Positions 2,113-50,439 of a stretch of 64,000 bases of DNA are shown one piece after another. The DNA lies in NCBI RefSeq assembly GCF_037392515.1, contig NC_090294.1:7329870-7393869 (forward strand), read 5' to 3'. How positions within the stretch are numbered: the first letter of the stretch is position 1; every line of letters starts with the position of its first letter. The position numbers and the translations under genes were made by a program. The notes under the pieces were generated by a model, which ran no database searches, was not told where the DNA came from, and saw only the letters and a program-made list of their open reading frames with translations. Source of the stretch: Haliotis asinina (lineage: Eukaryota).

Positions 2113-2442
2113 TTAAAATGGGATAAGGAGTGAAATTATGTATCGCGAAATACCTTTTCCTAATCCGATTCCATATCCTGGCATTCCGTAGAAACCACCG
2201 TAGCCTCCATACAGACTTCCCAGGCCGTATCCGTATTTGCCTCCATACAGACCGCCCATTCCTCCGTACGGGCCATAGCCGTAGCCTCCGTAAAAACCTC
2301 CGTGCATTGCACCTATTCCGTAGCCTAATACGCCAGCTCCTCCAAACAACCCACCCATTCCATGTGCTCCATACAGACCGGTTGGTTCAGCGAAGGCGGT
2401 AACAGCCAAGCAGACAACAAGGACGGCGACAATCTTCATCAT
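2113..2442 (-). CDS. Secreted Gly/Tyr-rich low-complexity protein (GGY/GYG repeat; shematrin/NLP-like class), array copy 1. Protein: MMKIVAVLVVCLAVTAFA|EPTGLYGAHGMGGLFGGAGVLGYGIGAMHGGFYGGYGYGPYGGMGGLYGGKYGYGLGSLYGGYGGFYGMPGYGIGLGKGISRYIISLLIPF
   Basis: ORF 2113..2556(-). The likely true start is ATGATG at 2442-2437 (minus), giving an N-terminal hydrophobic signal peptide with an A-F-A|E cleavage-like site. The mature part is about 40% Gly and about 17% Tyr with no Cys. The stop is TAA at 2115-2113. A possible 5'UTR acceptor ttactgaacag lies 9 nt upstream of the ATG. A possible alternative donor GKG|gtatttcg lies near the 3' end, so the C-terminus is uncertain. Confidence 0.7.
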   Translation of the reverse strand: MMKIVAVLVVCLAVTAFAEPTGLYGAHGMGGLFGGAGVLGYGIGAMHGGFYGGYGYGPYGGMGGLYGGKYGYGLGSLYGGYGGFYGMPGYGIGLGKGISRYIISLLIPF

Positions 2443-5292: not shown

Positions 5293-5622
5293 TTAAAATG
5301 GGATAAGGAGTGAAATTATGTATCGCGAAATACCTTTTCCTAATCCGATTCCATATCCTGGCATTCCGTAGAAACCACCGTAGCCTCCATACAGACTTCC
5401 CAGGCCGTATCCGTATTTGCCTCCATACAGACCGCCCATTCCTCCGTACGGGCCATAGCCGTAGCCTCCGTAAAAACCTCCGTGCATTGCACCTATTCCG
5501 TAGCCTAATACGCCAGCTCCTCCAAACAACCCACCCATTCCATGTGCTCCATACAGACCGGTTGGTTCAGCGAAGGCGGTAACAGCCAAGCAGACAACAA
5601 GGACGGCGACAATCTTCATCAT
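5293..5622 (-). CDS. Secreted Gly/Tyr-rich protein, array copy 2 (identical protein)
   Basis: ORF 5293..5736(-) has an identical translation to copy 1. Confidence 0.7.
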   Translation of the reverse strand: MMKIVAVLVVCLAVTAFAEPTGLYGAHGMGGLFGGAGVLGYGIGAMHGGFYGGYGYGPYGGMGGLYGGKYGYGLGSLYGGYGGFYGMPGYGIGLGKGISRYIISLLIPF

Positions 5623-8472: not shown

Positions 8473-8802
8473 TTAAAATGGGATAAGGAGTGAAATTATG
8501 TATCGCGAAATACCTTTTCCTAATCCGATTCCATATCCTGGCATTCCGTAGAAACCACCGTAGCCTCCATACAGACTTCCCAGGCCGTATCCGTATTTGC
8601 CTCCATACAGACCGCCCATTCCTCCGTACGGGCCATAGCCGTAGCCTCCGTAAAAACCTCCGTGCATTGCACCTATTCCGTAGCCTAATACGCCAGCTCC
8701 TCCAAACAACCCACCCATTCCATGTGCTCCATACAGACCGGTTGGTTCAGCGAAGGCGGTAACAGCCAAGCAGACAACAAGGACGGCGACAATCTTCATC
8801 AT
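8473..8802 (-). CDS. Secreted Gly/Tyr-rich protein, array copy 3 (identical protein)
   Basis: ORF 8473..8916(-) has an identical translation. Confidence 0.7.
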   Translation of the reverse strand: MMKIVAVLVVCLAVTAFAEPTGLYGAHGMGGLFGGAGVLGYGIGAMHGGFYGGYGYGPYGGMGGLYGGKYGYGLGSLYGGYGGFYGMPGYGIGLGKGISRYIISLLIPF

Positions 8803-11652
8803 TTTGAGTATCTGTTCAGTAACATGAAAATCATCTTCATGACAGGGAAACAACATGTTATCATTACTCGTCTGGAGATTTTTCTCCACGGCACACGTGA
8901 TCAATGATATTATCATGTTTTATTTCACAAGCAACCACATATTTCCACACTGACAAGAACGGTAAATAGCACTTACACAGTCACAGTTTACTGAATTGGA
9001 TCAATGTAAAAGTTGAGAAAGTAGAGGTGTGCAGCAAAAGAATGAAAACGTCAGACTGCACATGCTTACCACAGGCAAACCTTGAAATGGTACTTACAAT
9101 TTGGTCTGAAGACGTAACTGTGTCCTAGCAGTTGATGAAGAAAGAGATGATAGAATATTTTTCCCCTTACCTTTATATATACAATTTGTGAACTACATGT
9201 GATTGATTTACCTTAGGTTGGCCACTTCCAGGTAAGCAACACACCTAAATGTTAATGATGTGAACTGACCATTCTTTTCGCCTCAAATGACTTGCCTCAG
9301 GTTATCACCCTAAGGCTATACATGTGTGCTGGTGTACTTGAACATTCATAAAGGAAGTAGAGGGTGGTATATAATAGGGTGTAGGTCTCTCTTCGTATAT
9401 CTTTTTCATCTCTCTTTGGCATGTTTTAACTGCATTTAGAAAACAAATAACTTGCAGGTACTCAACTTTGAACCAGTATTAGGCCAATAGTCGTTTAACA
9501 GCTGTCTATCCATTACACTTGGGATGGAGCAATGTAGATCAGACATTATGACATATCTGCCTGAGACGAAATTACGAAAGACGGGAAAACTGACACAACG
9601 CACGAGCACAGGATCGGCACACAGCAGCAATGTCACTGTTACAAGGGGTTGCTATATACACATGTATGTGTAATACTGCAGTCTGTCCACGTGATGACCG
9701 CCTGCTTAATAGACTGATGAAATCTCCCAATAGCATGACATTCTCTCCGAATGTTAACATTATCACCACACTTAAACTAAAAACTACAATAACGTCATTT
9801 CCCAGAAGGTATATGCATATACTAGTGCCTTTTCACAAAGGGATTGTAACTATCAATTGTCACAGCACGTATTTATCGCTTACAAACTAAGCATGGTTGT
9901 CTTCGGAAAACACGATAAGGTTTCCCTCATGAACTACAGCATGTTCCCTCGTATTTGTAGACTTTCCTTTGCATGTGTTTCTGATTGCTGTAGCAGAGGG
10001 TTAGCATACACGTCCCTCCTTCGCCAGCACGTTGTGTCATCCCTATTTGATAGCAAGTCATGCACACATCCCTAGGATATAACACAACCGTACAGTGGAC
10101 TCTGCCTGTAGTGCCAATTCCTGACAGTTACACAAAGGATTGGGTCGCTTTACTTGACAGCTATTTTCTTTCAAGCAACTCTCCATTTCTTAATATCACC
10201 TTTCTGAGGAAGCAGAATTCACTTATCATAAAGGCAACAATAGTACTGAAACATATACTGGTTACTAAGTAAGACACCAGGTGCTAGCCAACAATTTCTA
10301 GTTGTAAATATTTGTTAGATGTTTCACGACCTTTCCATTCGGTCTTCCTTGTTCCAAACTGAAGGAAAATTGTCTTTGGATAATTGGATAATGTCTCAAC
10401 AAATGCTACAATGCAGTGTATATTTGCATGGCTACAGCAAGTTTTAATCACTGTTGCAAGTGATTCACTTCAATAAGTTTTGGGCTTCAAGCGAATGTTT
10501 GAAAACAAACAGCAGTAGGAAGAAGAAGTAGAAAACTCGACTTTATCCTTCACACAAGCCCTTTGCATGATGAAAACAGTCTTCAGTGTGTTCACAGATA
10601 ATGTTACCCTTGCGTTCAAATCAATCAAGAACTTTATTACATGTCTACCATATCCGATCGGAAACACCCAATTACCGTCTGATTTGATAAATATATACGT
10701 TTTGATAGAGATAAATACGTCTCCTGTTAATGAGAGCAGCGGAATACAAACGGTTATTATATATCATGAAATCTGGAAGCAAACTTCCCCAGTAGTGTAC
10801 AAAATGCTTGATATTTTCATCAAGTGTTATCGACTATTGATAGCATGGTAAATACAACTTTAGTAGTATGTAGTAACTTATGATTCTAGGCTTTTCGTTA
10901 TGTTTATATGATAAATAAACCGACGGAATGTGCTACAGTAACTTCTGATTGTAGACCTTTTCACTTGGAACGGGATACTCACTTGCATTCGAATCGCATA
11001 CTGTGCACAATGGCTACTACTAAAGATTTCATGCACATGAAGATGCACACATGACTCAACTCCGAGTATTTTCGGATTTCACAATGACATCACCGAAGCC
11101 CTTCGTGGCAGCACAAATGATATATTTGCATGAGAGATGGAACCGAATAAGAGATGGCATGTAGGAAATATATGTGAAGCCTTCAATACCCCTATCATAT
11201 TCAGTCTCATTTCTCCAGGAAATTCGAAGCACATTTTATAACTTGCCGCCAGTGCTTGCAGCAAAACTGATTACCAGTTAAATATTTGGATGTAGTGGAA
11301 CGTTTTGTAAACGTTGAATTTAGTTTTATGATTTTCAAACAAAGCACAAATCGTTTGTATTTTAATTTTTATTGAACCAGTTGTATTGTCATGAGTATAC
11401 AAAATAAGGAGTAATAAGTTCTCTTCACACTGCAGGTGACAGTAACTCAGTAATAGCCGATTCCTGAAACAGAAAGGGTAGTTACATGTAAAATAGGGAT
11501 TTACGGAAAAGTAACATGGAAATGTTGAAACTATCCCAAGCATTTCAAACAGCTGACGACAGTTTGAAAGATGTTTATCAGCTGAAAATATCGTATTTGC
11601 GTAGAATAATAATAAAGACATGTGTACATGATGTTATTCAATAAAGTGAAGT

Positions 11653-11982
11653 TTAAAATGGGATAAGGAGTGAAATTATGTATCGCGAAATACCTTTTCC
11701 TAATCCGATTCCATATCCTGGCATTCCGTAGAAACCACCGTAGCCTCCATACAGACTTCCCAGGCCGTATCCGTATTTGCCTCCATACAGACCGCCCATT
11801 CCTCCGTACGGGCCATAGCCGTAGCCTCCGTAAAAACCTCCGTGCATTGCACCTATTCCGTAGCCTAATACGCCAGCTCCTCCAAACAACCCACCCATTC
11901 CATGTGCTCCATACAGACCGGTTGGTTCAGCGAAGGCGGTAACAGCCAAGCAGACAACAAGGACGGCGACAATCTTCATCAT
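11653..11982 (-). CDS. Secreted Gly/Tyr-rich protein, array copy 4 (identical protein)
   Basis: ORF 11653..12096(-) has an identical translation. Confidence 0.7.
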   Translation of the reverse strand: MMKIVAVLVVCLAVTAFAEPTGLYGAHGMGGLFGGAGVLGYGIGAMHGGFYGGYGYGPYGGMGGLYGGKYGYGLGSLYGGYGGFYGMPGYGIGLGKGISRYIISLLIPF

Positions 11983-14832
11983 TTTGAGTATCTGTTCAGT
12001 AACATGAAAATCATCTTCATGACAGGGAAACAACATGTTATCATTACTCGTCTGGAGATTTTTCTCCACGGCACACGTGATCAATGATATTATCATGTTT
12101 TATTTCACAAGCAACCACATATTTCCACACTGACAAGAACGGTAAATAGCACTTACACAGTCACAGTTTACTGAATTGGATCAATGTAAACGTTGAGAAA
12201 GTAGAGGTGTGCAGCAAAAGAATGAAAACGTCAGACTGCACATGCTTACCACAGGCAAACCTTGAAATGGTACTTACAATTTGGTCTGAAGACGTAACTG
12301 TGTCCTAGCAGTTGATGAAGAAAGAGATGATAGAATATTTTTCCCCTTACCTTTATATATACAATTTGTGAACTACATGTGATTGATTTACCTTAGGTTG
12401 GCCACTTCCAGGTAAGCAACACACCTAAATGTTAATGATGTGAACTGACCATTCTTTTCGCCTCAAATGACTTGCCTCAGGTTATCACCCTAAGGCTATA
12501 CATGTGTGCTGGTGTACTTGAACATTCATAAAGGAAGTAGAGGGTGGTATATAATAGGGTGTAGGTCTCTCTTCGTATATCTTTTTCATCTCTCTTTGGC
12601 ATGTTTTAACTGCATTTAGAAAACAAATAACTTGCAGGTACTCAACTTTGAACCAGTATTAGGCCAATAGTCGTTTAACAGCTGTCTATCCATTACACTT
12701 GGGATGGAGCAATGTAGATCAGACATTATGACATATCTGCCTGAGACGAAATTACGAAAGACGGGAAAACTGACACAACGCACGAGCACAGGATCGGCAC
12801 ACAGCAGCAATGTCACTGTTACAAGGGGTTGCTATATACACATGTATGTGTAATACTGCAGTCTGTCCACGTGATGACCGCCTGCTTAATAGACTGATGA
12901 AATCTCCCAATAGCATGACATTCTCTCCGAATGTTAACATTATCACCACACTTAAACTAAAAACTACAATAACGTCATTTCCCAGAAGGTATATGCATAT
13001 ACTAGTGCCTTTTCACAAAGGGATTGTAACTATCAATTGTCACAGCACGTATTTATCGCTTACAAACTAAGCATGGTTGTCTTCGGAAAACACGATAAGG
13101 TTTCCCTCATGAACTACAGCATGTTCCCTCGTATTTGTAGACTTTCCTTTGCATGTGTTTCTGATTGCTGTAGCAGAGGGTTAGCATACACGTCCCTCCT
13201 TCGCCAGCACGTTGTGTCATCCCTATTTGATAGCAAGTCATGCACACATCCCTAGGATATAACACAACCGTACAGTGGACTCTGCCTGTAGTGCCAATTC
13301 CTGACAGTTACACAAAGGATTGGGTCGCTTTACTTGACAGCTATTTTCTTTCAAGCAACTCTCCATTTCTTAATATCACCTTTCTGAGGAAGCAGAATTC
13401 ACTTATCATAAAGGCAACAATAGTACTGAAACATATACTGGTTACTAAGCAAGACACCAGGTGCTAGCCAACAATTTCTAGTTGTAAATATTTGTTAGAT
13501 GTTTCACGACCTTTCCATTCGGTCTTCCTTGTTCCAAACTGAAGGAATATTGTCTTTGGATAATTGGATAATGTCTCAACAAATGCTACAATGCAGTGTA
13601 TATTTGCATGGCTACAGCAAGTTTTAATCACTGTTGCAAGTGATTCACTTCAATAAGTTTTGGGCTTCAAGCGAATGTTTGAAAACAAACAGCAGTAGGA
13701 AGAAGAAGTAGAAAACTCGACTTTATCCTTCACACAAGCCCTTTGCATGATGAAAACAGTCTTCAGTGTGTTCACAGATAATGTTACCCTTGCGTTCAAA
13801 TCAATCAAGAACTTTATTACATGTCTACCATATCCGATCGGAAACACCCAATTACCGTCTGATTTGATAAATATATACGTTTTGATAGAGATAAATACGT
13901 CTCCTGTTAATGAGAGCAGCGGAATACAAACGGTTATTATATATCATGAAATCTGGAAGCAAACTTCCCCAGTAGTGTACAAAATGCTTGATATTTTCAT
14001 CAAGTGTTATCGACTATTGATAGCATGGTAAATACAACTTTAGTAGTATGTAGTAACTTATGATTCTAGGCTTTTCGTTATGTTTATATGATAAATAAAC
14101 CGACGGAATGTGCTACAGTAACTTCTGATTGTAGACCTTTTCACTTGGAACGGGATACTCACTTGCATTCGAATCGCATACTGTGCACAATGGCTACTAC
14201 TAAAGATTTCATGCACATGAAGATGCACACATGACTCAACTCCGAGTATTTTCGGATTTCACAATGACATCACCGAAGCCCTTCGTGGCAGCACAAATGA
14301 TATATTTGCATGAGAGATGGAACCGAATAAGAGATGGCATGTAGGAAATATATGTGAAGCCTTCAATACCCCTATCATATTCAGTCTCATTTCTCCAGGA
14401 AATTCGAAGCACATTTTATAACTTGCCGCCAGTGCTTGCAGCAAAACTGATTACCAGTTAAATATTTGGATGTAGTGGAACGTTTTGTAAACGTTGAATT
14501 TAGTTTTATGATTTTCAAACAAAGCACAAATCGTTTGTATTTTAATTTTTATTGAACCAGTTGTATTGTCATGAGTATACAAAATAAGGAGTAATAAGTT
14601 CTCTTCACACTGCAGGTGACAGTAACTCAGTAATAGCCGATTCCTGAAACAGAAAGGGTAGTTACATGTAAAATAGGGATTTACGGAAAAGTAACATGGA
14701 AATGTTGAAACTATCCCAAGCATTTCAAACAGCTGACGACAGTTTGAAAGATGTTTATCAGCTGAAAATATCGTATTTGCGTAGAATAATAATAAAGACA
14801 TGTGTACATGATGTTATTCAATAAAGTGAAGT

Positions 14833-15162
14833 TTAAAATGGGATAAGGAGTGAAATTATGTATCGCGAAATACCTTTTCCTAATCCGATTCCATATCCTG
14901 GCATTCCGTAGAAACCACCGTAGCCTCCATACAGACTTCCCAGGCCGTATCCGTATTTGCCTCCATACAGACCGCCCATTCCTCCGTACGGGCCATAGCC
15001 GTAGCCTCCGTAAAAACCTCCGTGCATTGCACCTATTCCGTAGCCTAATACGCCAGCTCCTCCAAACAACCCACCCATTCCATGTGCTCCATACAGACCG
15101 GTTGGTTCAGCGAAGGCGGTAACAGCCAAGCAGACAACAAGGACGGCGACAATCTTCATCAT
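14833..15162 (-). CDS. Secreted Gly/Tyr-rich protein, array copy 5 (identical protein)
   Basis: ORF 14833..15276(-) has an identical translation. Confidence 0.7.
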   Translation of the reverse strand: MMKIVAVLVVCLAVTAFAEPTGLYGAHGMGGLFGGAGVLGYGIGAMHGGFYGGYGYGPYGGMGGLYGGKYGYGLGSLYGGYGGFYGMPGYGIGLGKGISRYIISLLIPF

Positions 15163-18012
15163 TTTGAGTATCTGTTCAGTAACATGAAAATCATCTTCAT
15201 GACAGGGAAACAACATGTTATCATTACTCGTCTGGAGATTTTTCTCCACGGCACACGTGATCAATGATATTATCATGTTTTATTTCACAAGCAACCACAT
15301 ATTTCCACACTGACAAGAACGGTAAATAGCACTTACACAGTCACAGTTTACTGAATTGGATCAATGTAAAAGTTGAGAAAGTAGAGGTGTGCAGCAAAAG
15401 AATGAAAACGTCAGACTGCACATGCTTACCACAGGCAAACCTTGAAATGGTACTTACAATTTGGTCTGAAGACGTAACTGTGTCCTAGCAGTTGATGAAG
15501 AAAGAGATGATAGAATATTTTTCCCCTTACCTTTATATATACAATTTGTGAACTACATGTGATTGATTTACCTTAGGTTGGCCACTTCCAGGTAAGCAAC
15601 ACACCTAAATGTTAATGATGTGAACTGACCATTCTTTTCGCCTCAAATGACTTGCCTCAGGTTATCACCCTAAGGCTATACATGTGTGCTGGTGTACTTG
15701 AACATTCATAAAGGAAGTAGAGGGTGGTATATAATAGGGTGTAGGTCTCTCTTCGTATATCTTTTTCATCTCTCTTTGGCATGTTTTAACTGCATTTAGA
15801 AAACAAATAACTTGCAGGTACTCAACTTTGAACCAGTATTAGGCCAATAGTCGTTTAACAGCTGTCTATCCATTACACTTGGGATGGAGCAATGTAGATC
15901 AGACATTATGACATATCTGCCTGAGACGAAATTACGAAAGACGGGAAAACTGACACAACGCACGAGCACAGGATCGGCACACAGCAGCAATGTCACTGTT
16001 ACAAGGGGTTGCTATATACACATGTATGTGTAATACTGCAGTCTGTCCACGTGATGACCGCCTGCTTAATAGACTGATGAAATCTCCCAATAGCATGACA
16101 TTCTCTCCGAATGTTAACATTATCACCACACTTAAACTAAAAACTACAATAACGTCATTTCCCAGAAGGTATATGCATATACTAGTGCCTTTTCACAAAG
16201 GGATTGTAACTATCAATTGTCACAGCACGTATTTATCGCTTACAAACTAAGCATGGTTGTCTTCGGAAAACACGATAAGGTTTCCCTCATGAACTACAGC
16301 ATGTTCCCTCGTATTTGTAGACTTTCCTTTGCATGTGTTTCTGATTGCTGTAGCAGAGGGTTAGCATACACGTCCCTCCTTCGCCAGCACGTTGTGTCAT
16401 CCCTATTTGATAGCAAGGCATGCACACATCCCTAGGATATAACACAACCGTACAGTGGACTCTGCCTGTAGTGCCAATTCCTGACAGTTACACAAAGGAT
16501 TGGGTCGCTTTACTTGACAGCTATTTTCTTTCAAGCAACTCTCCATTTCTTAATATCACCTTTCTGAGGAAGCAGAATTCACTTATCATAAAGGCAACAA
16601 TAGTACTGAAACATATACTGGTTACTAAGCAAGACACCAGGTGCTAGCCAACAATTTCTAGTTGTAAATATTTGTTAGATGTTTCACGACCTTTCCATTC
16701 GGTCTTCCTTGTTCCAAACTGAAGGAATATTGTCTTTGGATAATTGGATAATGTCTCAACAAATGCTACAATGCAGTGTATATTTGCATGGCTACAGCAA
16801 GTTTTAATCACTGTTGCAAGTGATTCACTTCAATAAGTTTTGGGCTTCAAGCGAATGTTTGAAAACAAACAGCAGTAGGAAGAAGAAGTAGAAAACTCGA
16901 CTTTATCCTTCACACAAGCCCTTTGCATGATGAAAACAGTCTTCAGTGTGTTCACAGATAATGTTACCCTTGCGTTCAAATCAATCAAGAACTTTATTAC
17001 ATGTCTACCATATCCGATCGGAAACACCCAATTACCGTCTGATTTGATAAATATATACGTTTTGATAGAGATAAATACGTCTCCTGTTAATGAGAGCAGC
17101 GGAATACAAACGGTTATTATATATCATGAAATCTGGAAGCAAACTTCCCCAGTAGTGTACAAAATGCTTGATATTTTCATCAAGTGTTATCGACTATTGA
17201 TAGCATGGTAAATACAACTTTAGTAGTATGTAGTAACTTATGATTCTAGGCTTTTCGTTATGTTTATATGATAAATAAACCGACGGAATGTGCTACAGTA
17301 ACTTCTGATTGTAGACCTTTTCACTTGGAACGGGATACTCACTTGCATTCGAATCGCATACTGTGCACAATGGCTACTACTAAAGATTTCATGCACATGA
17401 AGATGCACACATGACTCAACTCCGAGTATTTTCGGATTTCACAATGACATCACCGAAGCCCTTCGTGGCAGCACAAATGATATATTTGCATGAGAGATGG
17501 AACCGAATAAGAGATGGCATGTAGGAAATATATGTGAAGCCTTCAATACCCCTATCATATTCAGTCTCATTTCTCCAGGAAATTCGAAGCACATTTTATA
17601 ACTTGCCGCCAGTGCTTGCAGCAAAACTGATTACCAGTTAAATATTTGGATGTAGTGGAACGTTTTGTAAACGTTGAATTTAGTTTTATGATTTTCAAAC
17701 AAAGCACAAATCGTTTGTATTTTAATTTTTATTGAACCAGTTGTATTGTCATGAGTATACAAAATAAGGAGTAATAAGTTCTCTTCACACTGCAGGTGAC
17801 AGTAACTCAGTAATAGCCGATTCCTGAAACAGAAAGGGTAGTTACATGTAAAATAGGGATTTACGGAAAAGTAACATGGAAATGTTGAAACTATCCCAAG
17901 CATTTCAAACAGCTGACGACAGTTTGAAAGATGTTTATCAGCTGAAAATATCGTATTTGCGTAGAATAATAATAAAGACATGTGTACATGATGTTATTCA
18001 ATAAAGTGAAGT

Positions 18013-18342
18013 TTAAAATGGGATAAGGAGTGAAATTATGTATCGCGAAATACCTTTTCCTAATCCGATTCCATATCCTGGCATTCCGTAGAAACCACCG
18101 TAGCCTCCATACAGACTTCCCAGGCCGTATCCGTATTTGCCTCCATACAGACCGCCCATTCCTCCGTACGGGCCATAGCCGTAGCCTCCGTAAAAACCTC
18201 CGTGCATTGCACCTATTCCGTAGCCTAATACGCCAGCTCCTCCAAACAACCCACCCATTCCATGTGCTCCATACAGACCGGTTGGTTCAGCGAAGGCGGT
18301 AACAGCCAAGCAGACAACAAGGACGGCGACAATCTTCATCAT
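18013..18342 (-). CDS. Secreted Gly/Tyr-rich protein, array copy 6 (identical protein)
   Basis: ORF 18013..18456(-) has an identical translation. Confidence 0.7.
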   Translation of the reverse strand: MMKIVAVLVVCLAVTAFAEPTGLYGAHGMGGLFGGAGVLGYGIGAMHGGFYGGYGYGPYGGMGGLYGGKYGYGLGSLYGGYGGFYGMPGYGIGLGKGISRYIISLLIPF

Positions 18343-19080
18343 TTTGAGTATCTGTTCAGTAACATGAAAATCATCTTCATGACAGGGAAACAACATGTTA
18401 TCATTACTCGTCTGGAGATTTTTCTCCACGGCACACGTGATCAATGATATTATCATGTTTTATTTCACAAGCAACCACATATTTCCACACTGACAAGAAC
18501 GGTAAATAGCACTTACACAGTCACAGTTTACTGAATTGGATCAATGTAAAAGTTGAGAAAGTAGAGGTGTGCAGCAAAAGAATGAAAACGTCAGACTGCA
18601 CATGCTTACCACAGGCAAACCTTGAAATGGTACTTACAATTTGGTCTGAAGACGTAACTGTGTCCTAGCAGTTGATGAAGAAAGAGATGATAGAATATTT
18701 TTCCCCTTACCTTTATATATACAATTTGTGAACTACATGTGATTGATTTACCTTAGGTTGGCCACTTCCAGGTAAGCAACACACCTAAATGTTAATGATG
18801 TGAACTGACCATTCTTTTCGCCTCAAATGACTTGCCTCAGGTTATCACCCTAAGGCTATACATGTGTGCTGGTGTACTTGAACATTCATAAAGGAAGTAG
18901 AGGGTGGTATATAATAGGGTGTAGGTCTCTCTTCGTATATCTTTTTCATCTCTCTTTGGCATGTTTTAACTGCATTTAGAAAACAAATAACTTGCAGGTA
19001 CTCAACTTTGAACCAGTATTAGGCCAATAGTCGTTTAACAGCTGTCTATCCATTACACTTGGGATGGAGCAATGTAGATC

Positions 19081-20115
19081 AGACATTATGACATATCTGC
19101 CTGAGACGAAATTACGAAAGACGGGAAAACTGACACAACGCACGAGCACAGGATCGGCACACAGCAGCAATGTCACTGTTACAAGGGGTTGCTATATACA
19201 CATGTATGTGTAATACTGCAGTCTGTCCACGTGATGACCGCCTGCTTAATAGACTGATGAAATCTCCCAATAGCATGACATTCTCTCCGAATGTTAACAT
19301 TATCACCACACTTAAACTAAAAACTACAATAACGTCATTTCCCAGAAGGTATATGCATATACTAGTGACTTTTCACAAAGGGATTGTAACTATCAATTGT
19401 CACAGCACGTATTTATCGCTTACAAACTAAGCATGGTTTCCCTCATGAACTACAGCATGTTCCTCGTATTTGTAGACTTTCCTTTGCATGTGTTTCTGAT
19501 TGCTGTAGCAGAGGGTTAGCATACACGTCCCTCCTTCGCCAGCTTGATATTTTCATCAGGTGTTATCGACTAATGATAGCATGGTAGATACAACTTTAGT
19601 AGTATGTAGTAACTTATGATTCTAGGCTCTTCGTTTTGTTTGTATGATAAATAAACCGACGGAATGTGCTACAGTAACTTCTGATTGTAGACCTTTTCAC
19701 TTGGAACGGGATACTCACTTGCATTCGAATCGCATACTGTGCACAATGGCTACTACTAAAGATTTCATGCACATGAAGATGCACACATGACTCAACTCCG
19801 AGTATTTTCGGATTTCACAATGACATCACCGAAGCCCTTCGTGGCAGCACAAATGATATATTTGCATGAGAGATGGAACCGAATAAGAGATGGCATGTAG
19901 GAAATATATGTGAAGCCTTCAATACCCCTATCATATTCAGTCTCATTTCTCCAGGAAATTCGAAGCACATTTTATAGGTTGACAGCAGTCGCCACACTTA
20001 CAGCAGTGTCACTGTTATAACGGGTTACTTTGTACACATCTATGTGTAATACTGCTGCCTGTCCATGCGATGACCGCCTTTTGAAATATCCCAATAGCTT
20101 GATATTCTCCCTGAA
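19081..20115. repeat. Degenerate 7th array unit / array boundary: unit positions 1-357 intact, then a 24-bp deletion flanked by ggtt microhomology (at about 19438), a ~780-bp deletion (junction cagc|ttga at about 19548), unit about 1268-1712, then an about 80%-identical fragment of unit 65-235
   Basis: Direct alignment by eye against the unit. Unit sequence ends at cacattttata and re-enters a diverged copy of the unit start (ggttgacagcagtcgccacacttacagcagtgtcactgttataacggg...). This copy lacks the Gly/Tyr ORF. Confidence 0.85.
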
Positions 20116-20400: not shown

Positions 20401-21569
20401 TTAAAGGTCACATGCAACGTAAAACACAACTTTGCAGATTCTGATACCTTTAGGTGTGCACTTACCGAAACAAATCATGAAAAGTGCCAATTCAGTTTAT
20501 AAGGTTGAAAAAAACGCAGTGAAAAAAAACCCGCGAAATCAAACGATTCACTAAATTCCCCCCAGCGCTGGGGGGAAAACTGGTTTCAACAGCTGTGCTG
20601 CGCTACGTCCATAACGCATGCGCAGTGAATAGGTTCGCGGAGCTTGAAACAGTATGCATGCCCAGCGTCTGAGGTCGTGAACAGTAGTCTAATCTTGGTT
20701 GTGTACACAAACAAGTAAATAATCTACTCGTTAAGTAAAAAAAACTTGTTGATTGTGGTAAGCAGTCTCTGTCACAGAGAAAGCTCAGTGTCTGGTTTAT
20801 TCACACCTATATGTCTGTCTGCCTGTCTGCTAAAGACAACATGCAATACACAGCTTCAATCATTGACAACGTGCAATATAAGGCTATACGCCATAAACAA
20901 AACTGATTTATGACTCGTGAACCCGAGTCCAGTCTCTGCCACATTATGTATTTAGGCAGGTGTGATACTTGTTCACATGACAAGTTTTTATGTCTGTGGG
21001 TTGCAAACAAACTACATCCATTTTTTCGGATGACTGGATTTGACGGAAACTGGTGCAAACTCTTTCAAGTCCTGCTTTGTACTTGGACGAATGACACTTT
21101 CCAGTCACGCAGTAGTTCACCATATCTACCGAGATGATTTTTGATTTGATCGAAATCAAATTCAGAGAACGTGTATTTACAAAACCCAACATCTCTATAT
21201 ACATTCTCTAGGGATAACAACTTATTCTAGTGTAAATGATTTTGTTTGACGACAACGGTATATGAATCCATACTGAAACGATGCATCAAGTACAATAAAA
21301 GAAGTTGTTATCAGCAAATGAACCAGCCAATCGGAAGCCGTCGTTACACTTGAGTGCATATCCACCCGCTATGACTGGGTTCGGTCTCCTGAGGGCTTCG
21401 TTTCGAGGGAAGTTAGGCCAAGTACAAAATATTGCACTTTTGAATCGCGATTGTACGCTTATAATTTTGTTTATTTGTTTTTTAACAAGCAGCAATGTAT
21501 ATTAGATGTCATGAATAAGTGATAATTGTGTTTTAATTGTTTGATTTTTTGGTTGCATGTGACCTTTAA
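20401..21569 (+). mobile_element. Non-autonomous TIR DNA transposon (MITE-like, about 1.17 kb), copy 1; termini TTAAAGGTCACATGCAACG ... GGTTGCATGTGACCTTTAA
   Basis: An 18-19-bp perfect terminal inverted repeat can be read directly. There is no transposase-length ORF. Three further copies in the window share about 80-90% identity along the whole length. Confidence 0.8.
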
Positions 21570-22539
21570 ACTATTTCATTTACAGGTTTGTACAAACCTG
21601 AAATGGCGAAAACTGTTAAGAAAATTAAAGCTATATGTTCTCACAATCTACTATCATTTAGTGTTGTCTCCTGCTTTGCCTATTTTTCAAGTTACAACCC
21701 TTGTTTTCATAGACGATTCTGTCAAAATCACTTGGTGTCGCTAGGTTGTAATCCGTGTTAGGTGGTATAAACCTACACGTTATTTGTCATCATTCGATTG
21801 ATGCTCAGTTAATGAATTTACAACAGGTATAATTAGTGGTAACACCACTTAGATAACCCGACAAAGGTCGCCATTTTGGCATTTCTTGTGTCTGGATCGA
21901 TCAAAGGATTAACCGATAACAAGCTGATTGATTAATTACTTTTATGCGGATTTAAATGGGGATTTGTCAAAAGGCAGTGTTTATGTATGTACATTTACTA
22001 ATCTATACTGAGTACACTCTGTCGTGTCTGTGTCCACGTAAAAACAACATCCTTCTTTCAAACAATTAACCGCCAATACATTGATTGATTGATTGATTGA
22101 TCATTATTGGCTAACTAAATAACTTTTTGAAAAGAATGACGCACATTATGCAATTAGTTGCCAGGTGTGCTATCTTGGGTAACCAATGAAACTATACAGC
22201 AATGTGAAAAACCTGAAACGATACATCACGTTTTCATCACGCTTTTTTAACCATTGCTTTCGTCGTTAAGTGTAATGATGCAGACGACATACACTAGGGC
22301 GTGCGTGCGAACTATGATGCATCTAGGAAAACTATGAAATGTCTACATATTACATTCCTGTTATACATTCGCAGATCGCTTCTTTTTATTAAGTTTCAAA
22401 ATAATCAAGTATGATTATAAAGTAACTGGAATTATGAGACCCAGTATAAAGGCGTATATAGACAAATGTCTACATACCGGTGACTGAACGTTACAAACCA
22501 AGTAAATTTAGCAACTGAAGAAATTTATCGCGCAGTATA

Positions 22540-23380
22540 TTCACTTCGACCCCGACCTCGCTGAGGTTATGTTACAGGTTGTGTCATGCAAACTCCTTTT
22601 GGTAATGATTCAAAATACATATTTATATAGTTATGTATATGTATATGTATTTATATAGTTGTGTATATGATTTTCTAACTTGATGAAAACAAACCATAAT
22701 CTCATCCCTATCTTGGGATGAATGCTATTTAAGTGTGTTTTCACCGACTTAGAAAAGCAAAATTACTTTCTACTGGTAGTAAAATATGTATTTTGTTGAT
22801 GGACAGTAGGATTTTGCATGACATTGCTTATAACGTAACAATTTCATTCTTGGAAGAGGTGGAGGTCAGTATAATATTGCTTGCAACATAAATGTCACTT
22901 CGACCCCCACCTTGCTTCCTTGGAAGAAGTCCTTATCTTAAAAGTTGTGTGATGCAAAATCCTTTTGGCCATGATTCAAATGCATATTTAACTACAAGTA
23001 TAAGTAGTTTTGATTTTCTAACTTGATGAAAACAAATCATAATCTCAATAATTCTAACGGACTTTAGCCCGTGACTTCACGATTTTCAAAAATGGCGGCG
23101 CCCTGTCTTGGGATGAATGCTATTTAAGTTTGTTTTCACCGACTTACGAAATCAAAATTACTTTTCAATGGTAGTAATATATGTATTTTATTGATGGACA
23201 TTAGGATTTTACATGACATTGCTTATTACATAACAATTTCACTCTTGGAAGCGGTCAATATAAGGGGTCAATATAATATTACTTACGATAATACATGTAT
23301 TGTCACTTCGACCACAACCTCGTTTCCGAGGAAGAAAGCGTTATATCCATGTAAAATCCTTTTGGTCAGCAATGTGTAGT
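22540..23380. repeat. About 350-410-bp tandem repeat, about 2.2 copies (unit begins tcacttcgacccc...; copies at about 22543, 22896, 23303)
   Basis: Recurring blocks read directly: atgaatgctatttaagtgtgttttcaccgacttagaaaagcaaaattactttc, gattttgcatgacattgcttataacgtaacaatttcattcttggaag, gattttctaacttgatgaaaacaaa. Confidence 0.7.
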
Positions 23381-23689
23381 AATCAGTCTTGATTGAAACT
23401 CGATTGAACTCGATGAAACTTGAACTTGACGAACTTCCTATACATTTTCTATACATTTAACTGAAAATCGTTCCCTCTATGACGTCACTGAACGGCAGAG
23501 GTACGTAACCTGTCTGCGGTTTCGTTTGCGGGCGTGAGAGAAGCAGACGGCTTTTTAGCAACTTTTGAGCGCTTGGTATTAATAAACCACAAGTTTTTTT
23601 CTGAAATAATGGTGTTCCGTTTATGACTAACCAGAAGTCTTTCATATGCAGTGATGAAAAGAGTACCAAAAATTGAGTTTAGTTGTTCT

Positions 23690-24864
23690 TTAAAAGGTCG
23701 CATGCAAGTAAAGCTCAACTGAGCAGATTCTAATACCTTTCGGTTTGCACAACAAATTATCAAAAAAAAAACAACAATTGAGCCTATAAAGTTGAAAAAC
23801 ACGTGATGAAAAAGCCCGCGAAGTCAGAGTTCAAACGATTCAATAAATTTCCCCAAGGGGAAAAGGTGTTTTCAGCACCTGTGGTTCGCTTTACTCATAA
23901 TACAGGGGCAGTGAATAGGTTCGCTGAGCCTGCCCGGAGTACGAGGTCGTGAGCAGTAGTCTAATCTTGGTTGTGTTACTCGTTACATAAAAAACATGTT
24001 GTAAACAGCCTCTGTCACACAGAAAGGCCAATGTCTGGTTTATTGACACCCATATGTCCGCCCTCCGGTCTGTATTAGACAATATGAAACACAGCTTCAA
24101 TCATTGACCACACGCAGTTTGAACTTAACACCTATCAGTCTATTCGCCATAAACAAAATAAACTGATTTATCACTCGTGCACCCGAATCCTGTCTCTACC
24201 ACAAATTGAAATTAGGCAGGTATGATACTTGGAACACATGACATGTTTTTATGTCTGTGGGTGTCAAAAATACATCCATTTTTCTCGGATGAATGGGTCT
24301 GACGAAAACTGGTGCAAACTCTTGTCAGTTTCGAGTCCTGCTTTTTCCTTGGGCGAATGACAGTTTCCAGTCACGCAGTAGTTCACCATCTCTGCTGAGA
24401 CGATTTTTTATTGGATCGAACGCAAATTCAGAGAACATGTATTTACAAAACCCAACGGCTCTAAATAATTCTTTATGGATAAAAACTTCTTCTAGTATAT
24501 ATGATTTTATTTGACAACGGTATATGAATCCATAATGAAACGACGCATCAAGTACACAAAAGAAGTTGTTATCCATAAAGAATATTACTTTCTTGTGACT
24601 CGCCATACTTCTAAAATGCCCATCAAACAGATCATCTTTCTGTACACACAATGACCCCACAGCGTATCAGCAAATGAACCAGCCAATCGGAAGCCGTCGT
24701 TACACATGAGAGCACTCCCACCAACTATGAATCGCGACTGTACGCTTATAAGTTGTTTATTTGTTTTGGTTTTTTTTACAAGCAGCAATGTATATTCTAT
24801 GTCATGAATAAGTGACAATTGTGTTTTAATTATATTTGATATTTTGGTTGCATGTGACCTTTAA
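23690..24864 (+). mobile_element. Same TIR element family, copy 2 (more diverged; 5' TIR ttaaaaggtcgcatgcaag, 3' TIR ggttgcatgtgacctttaa)
   Basis: Collinear similarity to copy 1 throughout, e.g. gcagtgaataggttcg, gtcgtgagcagtagtctaatcttggttgtg, ccagccaatcggaagccgtcgttacac. Confidence 0.75.
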
Positions 24865-27530: not shown

Positions 27531-27599
27531 TTGAAAGGACAAATCATCTGACAGTTACTTAATGTTTTTGTGACTAAGTTTGAGTTATTTCCGTGGAAA

Positions 27600-28650
27600 T
27601 CATTAATAATATAAATGCCATATACCTGTAAACAGCAAAGGGCACCTCATGATCTTTTCTCATATATCTGCCAAAATCTGTTGAAAGATATCAAATGGTT
27701 TTCGAGTTGTGCTCCGGAAACGAGGTCCGAATTGTTTCCATGGACACCCAGAAAATGACGAATCACAAAAACCTGTAAATAGTGAAAGGCACCACTTTGG
27801 GGTCTGCCATACATATCTGCCAAGTTTTGCTGATAGATATTCAGAATGTTTTTAGTTATGCTCCGGAAACGAAGCCCATTCCTTCATTTTCAGACAAAGT
27901 CCGAATTGTTTCAATGGAACCCGAGAAAATGATAAATCACAAAAACCTGTACATAGCAAAAGGCACCACTTTGGGGTCTGCAACACACATCTGCCAAGTT
28001 TTACTAACAGATATTAAGAAGTTTTTGAGTTCTGCTCCAGAAACGAAACACACCTCTCACTTTTCAGTCTAGGTCAGAAACATTTCCATGGAAACCGAGA
28101 AAATAATACATCACAAGATCCTGTACATAGCAAAAGGCATCACTTCAGCTTCTGACTGATATATTTACCAAGTTCTGCAGAAACATATTGAAAGGCTTTT
28201 GAGTTCTGCTCCAGAAACAAAGCCCACCCCACCATAAGACCAACACCAAAATGTTCCATGGAAAAACAAAAAAAAAATATAAATGCCAAAAATCTGTAAA
28301 TAGCAAAAGGCACAAGCATAGGCTGAGATTACTATATCTATCAAGTTTGGTCTGAAAACATTTAACGGTTTATGAGTTACGCTCCGGAAACAATATGATT
28401 ACGGACGGACAGACGAGGCGTCGACTACATCCCCCCGCATTACATGCCGGGGGGATAAAAACGCCAAAAATCTGTAAATAGCAAAAGGAACAACCATAGG
28501 TTAAGATTACTATATCAAGTTTCGTCTAAAGATACTGGAGGTTTCTGAGTTATGCTCCAGAAACAAAATGATTACAGACGCAAGGATGGATGGGTGGAAG
28601 ACGAGGCCTGGACTATATCCTCCCGCATTACATGCTGGGGGGGGGGGGAT
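27600..28650. repeat. Diverged about 165-175-bp satellite-like tandem repeat, 6 units (conserved core cctgtaaatagcaaaaggcac ... gttatgctccggaaacga ... ccatggaaa)
   Basis: Units begin near 27600, 27771, 27946, 28111, 28285, 28461, at about 70-85% identity. The last two units each end in a C6/G6-stem hairpin (atccccccgcattacatgccggggggat at 28429-28456; a weaker copy at 28617-28650). Confidence 0.75.
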
Positions 28651-29753: not shown

Positions 29754-30522
29754 TCACTGGCGCCGGATCCTGCGTCTCTGTCCACCACTGTAAGGCTGGT
29801 ACCGACAACGGTTGAAATCCACATGCCAAGTCATCTGTTCAAAGTTACTATGGGTGTAGGGTTGCCACTGGAAGCTGCTGTCATCCATGATTCTGCCATA
29901 CCCACAATCATTTCTCAGCTTCCTGTTAGTCTCCATTGTCTGTCTATTTAGAGTGCCGCGGTTGATGTTCATGGGGTTTATGTCCTTCAACATTCTGTTC
30001 ACATCAAGATTCAGAGGACGACGCAGGGGCCGAAGAGGCTGTTCCTGTCTGTTCAAAGCCTGAGTTAAGGTTCGGGAAGGAATGGGGTTACATCCAAAAC
30101 GGAATATCTCAGGGTTCTTTTCCTGTTTTTTCTGGACATTGCCAGGGAGACGGAAGCCCCAGGCATCTGAGATGTGAGTCAGCAGCAGGTTGGTAATGCG
30201 ACGATGAGCCGTCATGTCCCAGTGTATGCCATCATCAGCACGACGGTGAAGTTGATACCGCAGGAAGTAATGCAGGTCAAGAACATCAAAGCCATTTTCA
30301 ACCACAACCTTAGCTGCATAATAGTTGGCTTCCAGGATGTCTAAACGCAGAGTGGAGTTCATGAATTCAATCTCAGGGATTATGAAACCACCTCGAGCAT
30401 TCTTTGAAATGGGAAGTGTAGTGTTCCAGATCACCAGACAGTCTGCAGGAAGCACCTCCTTGAACCGCCTGAACAATGTCTTCAGGTTCTCTTTGTACTC
30501 ATCAATAGCTTTAACACCGTAC
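29754..30522 (-). CDS. PCED1: PCED1 homolog, terminal coding exon: (R)YGVKAIDEYKENLKTLFRRFKEVLPADCLVIWNTTLPISKNARGGFIIPEIEF...DGIHWDMTAHRRITNLLLTHISDAWGFRLPG...RRQ*
   Basis: Acceptor tttctgtgttgcag|GTACGG at 30522. AG from exon 3 plus G gives Arg, so the junction reads WDISRYG as in PCED1A/B. Stop TGA is at 29756-29754. The tail resembles HWN..AHR.LSQLLLAHVADAWG. ORF 29754..30572(-), 272 aa, is the longest ORF in the window. Confidence 0.85.
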
Positions 30523-31507
30523 CTGCAACACAGAAACATATGATCTAACAAACCATGTACATTTGCTAACAATTACTTTAAAACTCACTAGTTGTGGAAG
30601 CTCTTAGTCTATACTGGTCCCAAGCAACAAAAGATGGACATAATTTAACAGATCAGGTTGTCAGGCAGGATGACCAAATTGTACCAGATTCTAAATGCCA
30701 TAAGTCTATATCAACACGTGTGGTATTAATTACACTCCTCACAAAAAGTTAAGAAACACAAAATTTTAGTCTAATTACATTTTCATATCATGGAATGATG
30801 CAATAGAAACGTCAAACAAATGTACACACGATTAACAAAATGAAATGAAATGGTATTGAGCAATAACAGACTTACAGATCATCAAAAGCATGTCCCATAA
30901 AACAGTTGTGCAAAATGTGTTGCACTGAAATAATGGAGCAAACTGATACGATCTTTGACAATGAAGCAGTGTTCAGAAACGTGTATGACCACCATTCACA
31001 CACGAATACAAGCTTTTACACATCTTTGCATTGACCAAAAAAGCCTTGTAAGTTGTTGCTGTGGAATGTTCAGCAATTCTCTGGAATGCCTGCTCAAGGT
31101 CATCAAGGGTCTGTGGGTAAACATGGAGACCATGAACACCAAGCTCAAGCATGTTCAGTGAGCTTACGATCAGGCCGAGATTTCTCGAAACAAACTTAAA
31201 TCTGAGTTTTGACTTAACTTCAAGTTTTTGCTCAAATCTGAGAAAGCGCAGGGACACGCATTTTACAGAATGAACGGAAATCGGTATCAAACTCAAACTT
31301 AGTAGACAATCTGAGTTTGGTGGGCAGATTTCTTTAGCTATTTGGACTTTTTCATTTAAAAACATGCAGCTGAGTTAAAAATTCAGGTGTTTCAAATTGT
31401 CAAACTCAGTTTCAGATTTCAGTGAAAACTTAAGTTTGTTTCGAGACCCCTGCAGATCATTCCATATGTGTGATGGTGTTGATCTAAACATCATTAACAA
31501 CTCTTTC

Positions 31508-32007
31508 TCAGGCATTATCCTCCATGGACAGGTTCTATCCTCCATGGACAGGTTCTATCCTCCATGGACAGGTTCTATCCTCCATGGACAGGTTCTATCC
31601 TCCATGGACAGGTTCTATCCTCCATGGACAGGTTCTATCCTCCATGGACAGGTTCTATCCTCCATGGACAGGTTCTATCATCCATGGACAGGTTCTATCC
31701 TCCATGGACAGGTTCTATCATCCATGGACAGGTTCTATCATCCATGGACAGGTTCTATCATCCATGGACAGGTTCTATCCTCCATGGACAGGTTCTATCA
31801 TCCATGGACAGGTTCTATCATCCATGGACAGGTTCTATCATCCATGGACAGGTTCTATCATCCATGGACAGGTTCTATCCTCCATGGACAGGTTCTATCC
31901 TCCATGGACAGGTTCTATCATCCATGGACAGGTTCTATCCTCCATGGACAGGTTCTATCATCCATGGACAGGTTCTATCATCCATGGACAGGTTCTATCA
32001 CCCATGA
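31508..32007. repeat. 20-bp minisatellite (tccatggacaggttctatcc / ...tatca variants), about 25 units, in the PCED1 intron
   Basis: Perfect 20-bp periodicity read directly. It produces the artefactual ORFs 31397..32059, 31524..32165, 31564..32007 (all (+) strand). Confidence 0.95.
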
Positions 32008-32527
32008 AAATGAAGTTAGGACCTGCTTGTTGTACCAGAGAGATATCATTAAAGCTTGATTTAAACCAATCAGGGTGCATGTGTAAAGAGTGGAGCGCAT
32101 CTATGCCACACATTTTGCATGTTTCAGTGGGTGTTTGTGTTCGGGTGATGTTGTCAATGTTATAAGATAAATTAATTTTACAATCACTAAAGCGTAAAAT
32201 GGTTAAGTATTCTTTGCGCATTTAAATTTCAATTAACATGTAGGCGAAAAAGGCCATCGAGATTAATAAAGATACTGCACTAAATTCTTGCTGCATAATT
32301 TTTTGTGAGGAGTATAGATCACAAACACACAAAAGAACAGTCCATCATTATCTATGAAGGACGGGTTGATTGAACACTTATTATTAACCAATGATGTTTC
32401 AGGATTAAAGAATTCATGTTAGGATAACAATCATTTCTAGAAATGATCAGGGTCTTTATATATCAGTGAATTATTTACATAGTCAGACACCACAAAGAGC
32501 CTCACTGGGTCACAGCTATTTAGTTTG

Positions 32528-32768
32528 GTGTGGGAGGGAAGCAAGCTAAAGTCAGTGAGTGAGTGAGTGAGTGAGAGTGAGTGAGCGAGTGGATGAATAA
32601 GTATGATTTTATACCGCTTTTAGTAATATTCCAGCAATATCACATTGGGTGACAGAGAAATGGGATTTACACATTTTACTCATGTCAGGAATCAGACCCA
32701 CGTCTTCAGCAGGACAAGCAAACACCTTAACCACCAGGCTACCCCAGTGCCCTGACCGACTATCAAAA
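32528..32768 (-). mobile_element. tRNA-derived SINE with (TCAC)n tail, inserted in the PCED1 intron 10 bp downstream of the exon-3 donor
   Basis: The reverse complement reads ggggtagcctggtggttaaggtg (A-box-like) ... gggtctgattcctg (B-box-like) ... ccatttctctgtcacccaatgtgatattgctggaatattactaaaagcggtataaaatcatact ... (cactc)n. It accounts for the ORF 32609..33088 extension past DISR ([30 protein letters not shown]...). Confidence 0.7.
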
Positions 32769-32774
32769 GCATAC

Positions 32775-33007
32775 CTGCTGATATCCCACAGACAGGAGTT
32801 GAGGATCACAACATCAGGCCTTGGTTCATCACTCAGGTCAGCCAGAATACTCTCCATGTAAGCATTGTAGCAACGGCACACAAAGTAGAATCGGACAAGG
32901 TGGTAGTCCGACAGGTACTGTCGCACCTCACGGTAGTTGATGCCATTGCTCATCTTGCCCTTCTTCCCTCCCTCAATCAGCTCATCCCTCTCAAAGGTCA
33001 TCTCACC
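32775..33007 (-). CDS. PCED1: PCED1 homolog, coding exon 3: [77 protein letters not shown](R)
   Basis: Acceptor ctctcaccttgatgcag|GGTGAG at 33007 and donor CAGCAG|GTATGC at 32775. It enters in phase 0 from exon 2 and is 233 nt (77 codons + 2). Coordinates were calibrated against ORF 32609..33088. Confidence 0.8.
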
Positions 33008-33084
33008 CTGCATCAAGGTGAGAGGTGAAAGTTCATAAGTAGAGAACACAAAAACTGTAAAGGTATGAACAGGTAATGAGGCAT

Positions 33085-33600
33085 ACAAGTAGTAGCATAG
33101 GGAATGGGGGTTTTAAATCGCACAGCCAAATCGGAAACTACTCAAGTTGACGAGTCAGTAATGAGGTATACAAGTTGACGAGTCAGTAATGAGGCATACA
33201 AGTTGGTGAGTCAGTAATGAGGCATACAAGTAGTAGCATAGGGAATGGGGGTTTTAAATCGCACAGCCAAATCGGAAACTACTCAAATTGACGAGTCAGT
33301 AATGAGGCATACAAGTTGACGAGTCAGTAATGAGGCATACAAGTTGGTGAGTCAGTAATGATTCATACCAGTTGGTGAGTCAGTAATGAGGCATACAAAT
33401 TGGTGAGTCAGTAATGAGGCATACAAGTAGTAGCATAGGGAATGGGGGTTCTAAATCGCACAGCCAAATCGGAAACTACTCAAGTTGACAAGTCAGTAAT
33501 GAGGCACACAAGTTGGTGAGTCAGTAATGAGGCATACAAGTTGGTGAGTCAGTAATGATTCATACAAGTTGGTGAGTCAGTAATGGCTCATACAAACTCT
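33085..33600. repeat. Higher-order tandem repeat (about 27-bp subunit gttgacgagtcagtaatgaggcatacaa nested in an about 175-bp unit containing agtagtagcatagggaatgggggttttaaatcgcacagccaaatcggaaactactcaag), in the PCED1 intron
   Basis: Subunit and unit recurrences read directly (33090, 33230, 33415). Confidence 0.8.
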
Positions 33601-44439: not shown

Positions 44440-44692
44440 CCGTGAAGGTCCGGGGTAGAATAGGCCTTGCCATAAAAGGTGACTGTACTTGTCGTAAGAG
44501 GCGACTAAAGGGATCGGGTGGTCAGGCTCGCTGACTTGGTTGGCGCATGTCATCGGTTTCCAACTGCGCAGATCGATGCTCATGCTGTTGATCACTGGAT
44601 TGTCTGGTCCAGACTCGATTATTTACAGACAGCCGCCTTATAGCTGGAATATTACTGAATGCGGCGTAAAACTAAAATCACTCACTCACTAA
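44440..44692 (+). mobile_element. SINE, second subfamily (ggccttgccataaaagg...cgtaagaggcgactaaagggatcgggtggtcaggctcgctgac...gatcactggattgtctggtccagactcgattatttacagacagccgccttatagctggaatattactgaatgcggcgtaaaactaaaatcactcactcactaag)
   Basis: Near-identical copy at 45490-45729 (with an internal deletion and a longer (CACT)n tail). A diverged copy lies at 54660-54852 and a fragment at 38690-38790. Confidence 0.65.
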
Positions 44693-47731: not shown

Positions 47732-47842
47732 GTGAGGTGAGGTGAGGTGAGGTGAGGTGAGGTGAGGTGAGGTGAGGTGAGGTGAGGTGAGGTGAGGTGA
47801 GGTGAGGTGAGGTGAGGTGAGGTGAGGTGAGGTGAGGTGAGT

Positions 47843-47890
<48 letters not shown>

Positions 47891-50433: not shown

Positions 50434-50439
50434 ATCTTC

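Follow-up and report, generated by a model that had tools for sequence, protein, structure and literature searches.

The window, a 64,000-nt stretch of Haliotis asinina DNA, holds four copies of a dispersed non-autonomous transposon family that probably belongs to the Kolobok superfamily, as an internal-deletion derivative of a THAP-bearing element. The assignment follows from three features taken together: TTAA flanks, RR/YY termini and the remnant of a THAP-coding gene on the minus strand. The copies themselves are old, decayed and inert relics.

Four copies of a dispersed repeat family

BLAST, repeat finding, MAFFT alignment and an nhmmer profile recover four homologous copies, collinear and all in the plus orientation. 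The copies and the terminal features of copy 1 are listed below, with the gene-sense strand given for each copy.

20401-21569, minus strand (gene-sense strand): copy 1, 1169 bp including TTAA at each end; the sole copy with both ends intact
20401-20404, no strand: TTAA left of copy 1, a putative target-site duplication with its counterpart TTAA at 21566-21569
20405-20418, plus strand: left terminal inverted repeat of copy 1, AGGTCACATGCAAC, with a 5'-AG terminus
20556-20577, no strand: internal 22-nt palindrome of copy 1, TTCCCCCCAGCGCTGGGGGGAA
21552-21565, minus strand: right terminal inverted repeat of copy 1, GTTGCATGTGACCT on the plus strand, with a CT-3' terminus
23690-24864, minus strand: copy 2, with a damaged left end (TTAA-A-AGGTCGCATGCAAG) and a perfect right end with TTAA
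46144-47394, minus strand: copy 3, in which the first 8 nt of the left terminal inverted repeat and the TTAA are replaced; right end perfect with TTAA
49663-50435, minus strand: copy 4, with a perfect left end with TTAA; the right ~190 bp, including the terminal inverted repeat, are missing

The element has the layout TTAA-AGGTCACATGCAAC...GTTGCATGTGACCT-TTAA, with 14-nt terminal inverted repeats and a weaker second inverted motif, TAAAACACAA, just interior to each end. Terminal repeat and TTAA together form the 18-mer TTAAAGGTCACATGCAAC, which occurs five times in the window (at 20401 and 49663 on the plus strand and at 21552, 24847 and 47377 on the minus strand), against 0.01 occurrences expected by chance in shuffled sequence. 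Unit lengths range from 1169 to 1251 bp, and the majority consensus of the four copies is 1296 bp long.

The original prediction described four copies with perfect 18-bp terminal repeats, each starting and ending in TTAA. The four homologous copies stand, but both ends are perfect in copy 1 only, and TTAA is present at six of the eight ends, the left end of copy 3 and the right end of copy 4 being the exceptions. The left end of copy 2 reads TTAAAAGGTCGCATGCAAG, with an additional A and two substituted bases. That of copy 3 reads GTATGATACACATGCAAC, with homology from 46152 on and no TTAA. Copy 4, which had been placed at 49664, starts at 49663, and its right side stops near 50435 with neither a terminal repeat nor TTAA. 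Internal damage is just as varied. Copy 1 has a ~97-bp internal deletion and a 7-nt deletion within the THAP open reading frame, and a deletion of ~340 bp in copy 4 takes out the THAP region. Copies 2, 3 and 4, as well as a copy outside the window (L010, described below), have deletions or breakpoints at the centre of the palindrome TTCCCCCCAGCGCTGGGGGGAA. Such private deletions, the damaged ends and the divergence from the majority consensus (3.6% for copy 1, 5.2% for copy 3, 7.9% for copy 4 and 10.4% for copy 2) mark the copies as relics.

The four copies are separate insertions, because homology between them breaks off exactly at the inverted-repeat termini and their flanks are unrelated; comparison of the window with itself revealed no flank-flank or spacer-spacer similarity. 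The copies lie 8-16% apart pairwise (K2P 0.09-0.19), and the nearest relative of copy 1 is copy 3 (K2P 0.09) rather than the adjoining copy 2 (0.17). Scanned across metagenome contigs, the 18-mer matched 12 loci, of which four, on separate contigs of the WGS project PEAW01 (L001, L003, L010 and L012), carry genuine family ends. These ends are 84-92% identical over 100-170 bp, the flanks differ from contig to contig, and L010 has two left ends with 365 bp between them. The remaining eight loci are chance 18-mers without a partner end, and scans of prokaryotic genomes and viral contigs for more family copies found nothing.

A local segmental or tandem duplication would also explain four copies within 30 kb, in one orientation and at similar distances within the two pairs (about 3.2 and 3.5 kb). 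A single orientation for four copies, however, has a chance probability of 1/8, and the unrelated flanks and intervening sequence, the coincidence of homology limits with inverted-repeat termini and the family copies on four unrelated PEAW01 contigs rule duplication out for practical purposes. The view originally taken, of a non-autonomous transposon family with terminal inverted repeats rather than a local duplication, is thus borne out by the unrelated flanks, the distances between copies and the PEAW01 relatives.

The window as a whole contains microsatellites and minisatellites and has a CpG observed/expected ratio of 0.71. An open reading frame at 29754-30572 on the minus strand matches [quoted passage not shown] at 100% identity, and the window is nuclear DNA of this abalone. 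Scans of the window for tRNAs and Rfam families gave no matches.

A gene remnant on the minus strand

The minus strand of the element preserves the beginning of a gene: a CCAAT-like block, a leader and an open reading frame in which an N-terminal THAP zinc finger survives for its first ~40 codons. This remnant was absent from the original prediction. Its traces in the window are as follows.

21320-21390, minus strand: CCAAT-like block of copy 1, ...GGCTTCCGATTGGCTGG..., with an inverted CCAAT-box-like motif
21023-21123, minus strand: THAP remnant of copy 1, MVNYCVTGKCHSSKYKAGLE and, past a 7-nt deletion, KSLHQFPSNPVIRK in the next frame
24267-24389, minus strand: THAP remnant of copy 2, MVNYCVTGNCHSPKEKAGLETDKSLHQFSSDPFIREKWMYF*, which alone scores 16.4 bits against Pfam THAP (E=0.016), short of the cut-off
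46743-46853, minus strand: THAP remnant of copy 3, MVNYCVAGIYHSSKYKVGLETDKSLHQFPSDPLIRKK, with the second Cys lost

The consensus reading frame is MVNYCVTGNCHS..SLHQFPSDP.IRKKW, beginning MVNYCVTGNCHS...SLHQFPSDPVIRKKW. It matches positions 1-47 of the 87 in the Pfam THAP profile (PF05485), that is, the N-terminal half of the domain. The score is 26.6 bits on a reconstructed consensus in which two stop codons were swapped for arbitrary residues, or 24.7 bits when the frame is shifted instead (E between 1e-5 and 4e-5), and it is solely on the reconstructed consensus that the cut-off of 23.9 bits is passed. The best sequence matches of the remnant in the PDB are THAP2 and a Caenorhabditis elegans THAP domain, both weak (E of 0.08 and 0.3).

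The THAP ATG lies about 200-290 bp downstream of the CCAAT-like block, which may be part of the promoter or 5' region of the former transposase gene. The block is the same stretch that had been singled out as a conserved internal block. That description does not hold, as its pairwise identity (0.81-0.92) is no higher than that of the whole element (0.74-0.99). A peptide from a spurious open reading frame does recur among the copies as reported, a simple consequence of repeated DNA. Between the block and the THAP reading frame lies a 24-38-nt internal inverted repeat.

Downstream of the N-terminal half of THAP the sequence is non-coding in all copies, with the same truncation throughout, and copies 1 and 3 have in common a TAG stop after KKWM. 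The truncation is therefore older than the amplification, and the family multiplied in non-autonomous form. None of the copies has an open reading frame of transposase length in any frame, in agreement with the original prediction, and no other Pfam domain was found in any remaining reading frame of the consensus. The earlier label "MITE-like" is a loose one for a unit of 1.2-1.3 kb that retains the putative promoter region and the first coding part of a transposase gene, for which internal-deletion derivative is the better term.

Several searches were directed at an autonomous partner. Word-indexed protein homology searches with the 52-aa consensus THAP start and with a 90-aa consensus reading frame upstream of it yielded no candidate. 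A profile built from the THAP remnants in the window, run exhaustively with hmmsearch against 1.84 billion representatives, gave nine matches and no transposase among them, the nine being low-complexity repeats or generic multi-THAP proteins. Exact look-ups of the window's reading frames and of the H. asinina protein returned no record. The catalytic mark of Kolobok, in the element or in a relative with the same ends, would be a DDD/E transposase with a C/DxxH signature in a Kolobok-type RNase H fold. The Kolobok catalytic domain is without a Pfam model (PMC5751038), so Pfam is unable to recognise such a domain.

Target sites, termini and superfamily

TTAA adjoins all six recognisable ends in the window, which were located with the TTAA-free 14-mer. 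It also adjoins the second end on L010, located by a fuzzy match; for the other four of the five PEAW01 ends the search pattern itself contained TTAA, so these four are not independent evidence for the flank. The flanks of copy 1, ..GGGGTTAA and TTAAACTA.., leave no room for a direct repeat beyond 4 nt (GTTAA versus TTAAA). Sola3, with a 4-bp target-site duplication, is a conceivable rival to Kolobok. The TTAA of the abalone family is best read as a target-site duplication rather than part of the repeat, although a TA duplication within T-TA-A may have produced the same sequence. Variable flanks with a constant TTAA are compatible with both a duplicated target and a TTAA within the terminal repeat, and an empty site alone discriminates between them. 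The orthologous locus of Haliotis cracherodii (L013) contains no family copy and aligns in exons and a few patches only, not across the insertion points. Queries made of joined flanks found no paralogous empty site in the window.

The termini read AG...CT (AGGTCAC...GTGACCT) and are therefore of the RR/YY type. [quoted passage not shown] Kolobok transposases usually contain DDE, THAP and H2CH motifs (Hikosaka et al. 2018, PMC6004289). Full-length Kolobok elements of Xenopus have ends of the form TTAA-AGG..., for example TTAA-AGGACATGTCAACCCC in XKol A3 (PMC6004289). The abalone element, TTAA-AGGTCACATGCAAC, resembles XKol and the Xenopus T2-MITE/Xmix elements in having TTAA at both ends and AG(G) termini, in its association with a transposase gene with an N-terminal THAP domain, and in being non-autonomous and presumably mobilised in trans. 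It differs in that sequence similarity to the Xenopus elements ends after the first three terminal bases. T2-MITEs are short, whereas the abalone element is 1.2-1.3 kb long and keeps the 5' end of a gene, and its host is a vetigastropod mollusc rather than Xenopus.

Several points weigh against the Kolobok assignment. No Kolobok DDE domain could be linked to the family ends, and the THAP evidence consists of half a domain on a reconstructed consensus. Nor is THAP specific to Kolobok, being present in P and ISL2EU transposases and in numerous host genes. At the termini, agreement with Kolobok is confined to the superfamily-level RR, since AGGTC departs from the T2-MITE-type motif AGGRR. With neither an autonomous partner nor an empty site recovered, the superfamily assignment rests on the ends plus THAP.

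The TTAA at every intact end and the wide distribution of piggyBac in molluscs (PMC10294476) would suit a piggyBac-derived non-autonomous element, mobilised by a TTAA-integrating piggyBac transposase, and an affinity of this kind had been proposed. TTAA flanks, short terminal repeats and a non-autonomous structure are indeed what the abalone family has in common with piggyBac-derived MITEs, but its ends are AGG...CCT and theirs CCC...GGG. Terminal repeats of piggyBac start with CCC (CCCTT, CCCTC, CCCAT) or CACTA beside TTAA, and the transposases consist of NTD, DDBD1, DDD, DDBD2 and CRD domains with no THAP (PMC10813416). Both the AGG terminus and the THAP start thus argue against this origin, as do the RR/YY termini, which Kojima and Bao themselves use to separate Kolobok from piggyBac (PMC9587614), and they make it improbable. 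A PIF-like affinity, also proposed, fails on the duplication. PIF/Harbinger elements have a 3-bp TWA duplication (PMC4482050), and no 3-bp direct repeat is readable at the element ends.

Another THAP-bearing superfamily is also a very unlikely source. P element transposase carries a THAP domain, and a 2-bp TA duplication in T-TA-A would mimic a TTAA duplication. However, P elements make 7-8 bp duplications, and the flanks of copy 1 (...CAGGGGTTAA and TTAAACTATT...) contain no repeat longer than 4 nt. ISL2EU (PHIS) transposases likewise contain THAP (PMC4482050), and their AT-rich palindromic 4-nt target is a further likeness to the abalone family. ISL2EU elements duplicate AT within A-AT-T and have terminal repeats that start with GG (PMC4482050), as against the TTAA flank and AG terminus found here, or AA if the duplication is read as 2 bp.

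KolobokP, a lineage of Kolobok abundant in bivalves and present in abalones, Haliotis included, deserves separate consideration, as the copies might be its solo LTDRs or two LTDR-INT-LTDR composites, with copies 1 and 2 and copies 3 and 4 each bracketing an internal region. In KolobokP two LTDRs enclose an internal region that is specific to the family and codes for a transposase and a His-Me nuclease; the LTDRs have their own 11-18 bp terminal repeats and RR/YY termini, are restricted in length to about 450 or about 660 bp and are common as solo LTDRs, which show 3-5 bp target-site duplications that are not strictly TTAA (PMC9587614). The Haliotis host, the repeated unit with RR/YY termini and terminal repeats of up to 18 bp, the frequency of solo LTDRs and the clustering of units in one orientation, often seen in KolobokP, all speak for this reading. 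So do the spans of the two same-orientation pairs, 4464 bp and about 4290 bp, which fall inside the 4.0-4.7 kb of autonomous KolobokP elements (PMC9587614). Yet the abalone unit is 1.17-1.3 kb long and not ~450 or ~660 bp. Blastn and tblastx detect no similarity between the would-be internal regions, 21570-23689 and 47395-49662, and neither region has an open reading frame of transposase size. Adjoining units are not closest relatives, copies 1 and 3 being nearer to each other than copies 1 and 2. Of the 228 KolobokP consensus sequences in print, not one has the family terminal repeat or three conserved internal 14-15-mers, and THAP motif words are absent from the supplementary files of PMC9587614. 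The THAP remnant, and the lack of a conserved internal region between units, thus set the abalone element apart from KolobokP. Unit length, unrelated interiors, pair distances, the 0/228 sequence matches and the absence of THAP words led to rejection of the composite, and either form of the KolobokP reading is very unlikely.

For a Kolobok derivative outside KolobokP, the following course of events would account for the copies. The DDE-coding part and all else downstream of the THAP start would have been lost before the family amplified. An autonomous relative would then have supplied a Kolobok DDD/E transposase in trans, which would have bound the ends and excised the element. Integration of the excised element at TTAA tetranucleotides, with duplication of TTAA, would have completed each cycle.

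Probable place among gastropod Kolobok elements

This is an ordinary annotation finding and raises no new mechanistic question. Its practical value is that the family can be labelled Kolobok-like, in place of piggyBac or PIF, and masked in the genome of Haliotis asinina with a consensus of 1.3 kb. More generally, TTAA flanks are not by themselves a sign of piggyBac; the first terminal bases and any coding remnant decide.

In one survey, the Kolobok elements of molluscs were nearly confined to bivalves (PMC10294476), and KolobokP is the sole gastropod lineage in the literature covered. The abalone family adds a small data point on gastropod Kolobok diversity. It is conceivable, if rather doubtful, that it represents an undescribed THAP-bearing, non-KolobokP lineage of Kolobok in vetigastropods, with an autonomous partner perhaps still active in Haliotis. 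If so, the 5' part that the element has kept, with its putative promoter, leader and THAP start, could be needed in cis for mobilisation, or it could give rise to short transcripts by which the transposase is titrated or regulated.

Palindrome and inverted repeat inside the element

Two symmetrical sequences lie within the TTAA-flanked, Kolobok-like element, and one of them may have influenced how its copies decayed. A perfect palindrome of 22 nt (TTCCCCCCAGCGCTGGGGGGAA) occupies 20556-20577 in copy 1, and its site can be aligned in copies 2-4. Four independent rearrangements coincide with it. Copy 2 is missing the six central nucleotides, the palindrome centre is the end point of a deletion in copy 3 and the start point of a deletion in copy 4, and in a copy on a contig of the PEAW01 project (L010, PEAW01038362.1) homology to the family breaks off at the palindrome, at about 1190-1195. 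This coincidence suggests that the palindrome is a deletion hotspot, prone to hairpin formation or to microhomology-mediated loss. On this short contig the left end of the family occurs twice (1023-1195 and 1388-1410), at a distance of 365 bp and without a change of orientation, which echoes the same-orientation clustering of copies in the window.

The stretch from the CCAAT-like block to the ATG of the THAP zinc-finger remnant holds the second sequence, an inverted repeat with arms of 24-38 nt (ATTCTTTATGGATAACAACTTCTT / AAGAAGTTGTTATCCATAAAGAAT) and a spacer of 41-68 nt, which is kept in copies 1-3.

Arms of the internal inverted repeat
21213-21240 / 21285-21312, copy 1
24468-24491 / 24560-24583, copy 2
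46933-46970 / 47012-47049, copy 3

Genes and tandem repeats in the window

The window opens with a tandem array of six 3180-bp units (99.2-99.8% identity), each with a minus-strand ORF of 147 aa. The start of this ORF resembles a signal peptide (MKIVAVLVVCLAVTAFA), its body is rich in Gly and Tyr (..GGLYGGKYGYGLGSLYGGYGG..), and a Pfam search with it gave no match. The array looks like a secreted structural protein gene, perhaps shell-matrix-like, that was recently amplified or homogenised, or else like an assembly collapse or expansion. A PC-esterase domain-containing protein 1A-like gene is represented by exons that match the protein of H. asinina at 100% identity and that of H. cracherodii at 85%, which marks H. 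asinina as the host. A 203-aa ORF with Tc1/mariner-type HTH domains (HTH_Tnp_Tc3_2 at 28.7 bits, slightly under the cut-off) reaches the beginning of the DDE region at its C-terminal end; the ORF is what remains of a truncated Tc1/mariner transposase and has no relation to the Kolobok-like family.

Other features of the window
1-19543, tandem array; partial, diverged unit pieces to ~20121
22541-23344, ~395-bp duplication, flanked by copies 1 and 2
27566-28640, ~174-bp tandem repeat
29754-33088, minus, PC-esterase domain-containing protein 1A-like exons
31389-32108, minisatellite, 20-nt register/60-nt, three frames open
33002-33596, 28/113-bp repeat
41199-41810, minus, 203-aa ORF
47712-47866, (GTGAG)n/(GA)n microsatellite, flanked by copies 3 and 4
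51514-51812, 31-bp tandem repeat

An interspersed repeat in two Haliotis species

A short interspersed repeat (~130-180 bp) has three copies in the window and at least five in the orthologous 29-kb locus of H. cracherodii (L013), at 68-87% identity.

Positions of the interspersed repeat
Window: 44488-44690, 45586-45711, 54669-54842
L013: 16866-17328, 22895-23070, 25847-25982, 28103-28251

The repeat probably represents a SINE or MITE common to Haliotis species.
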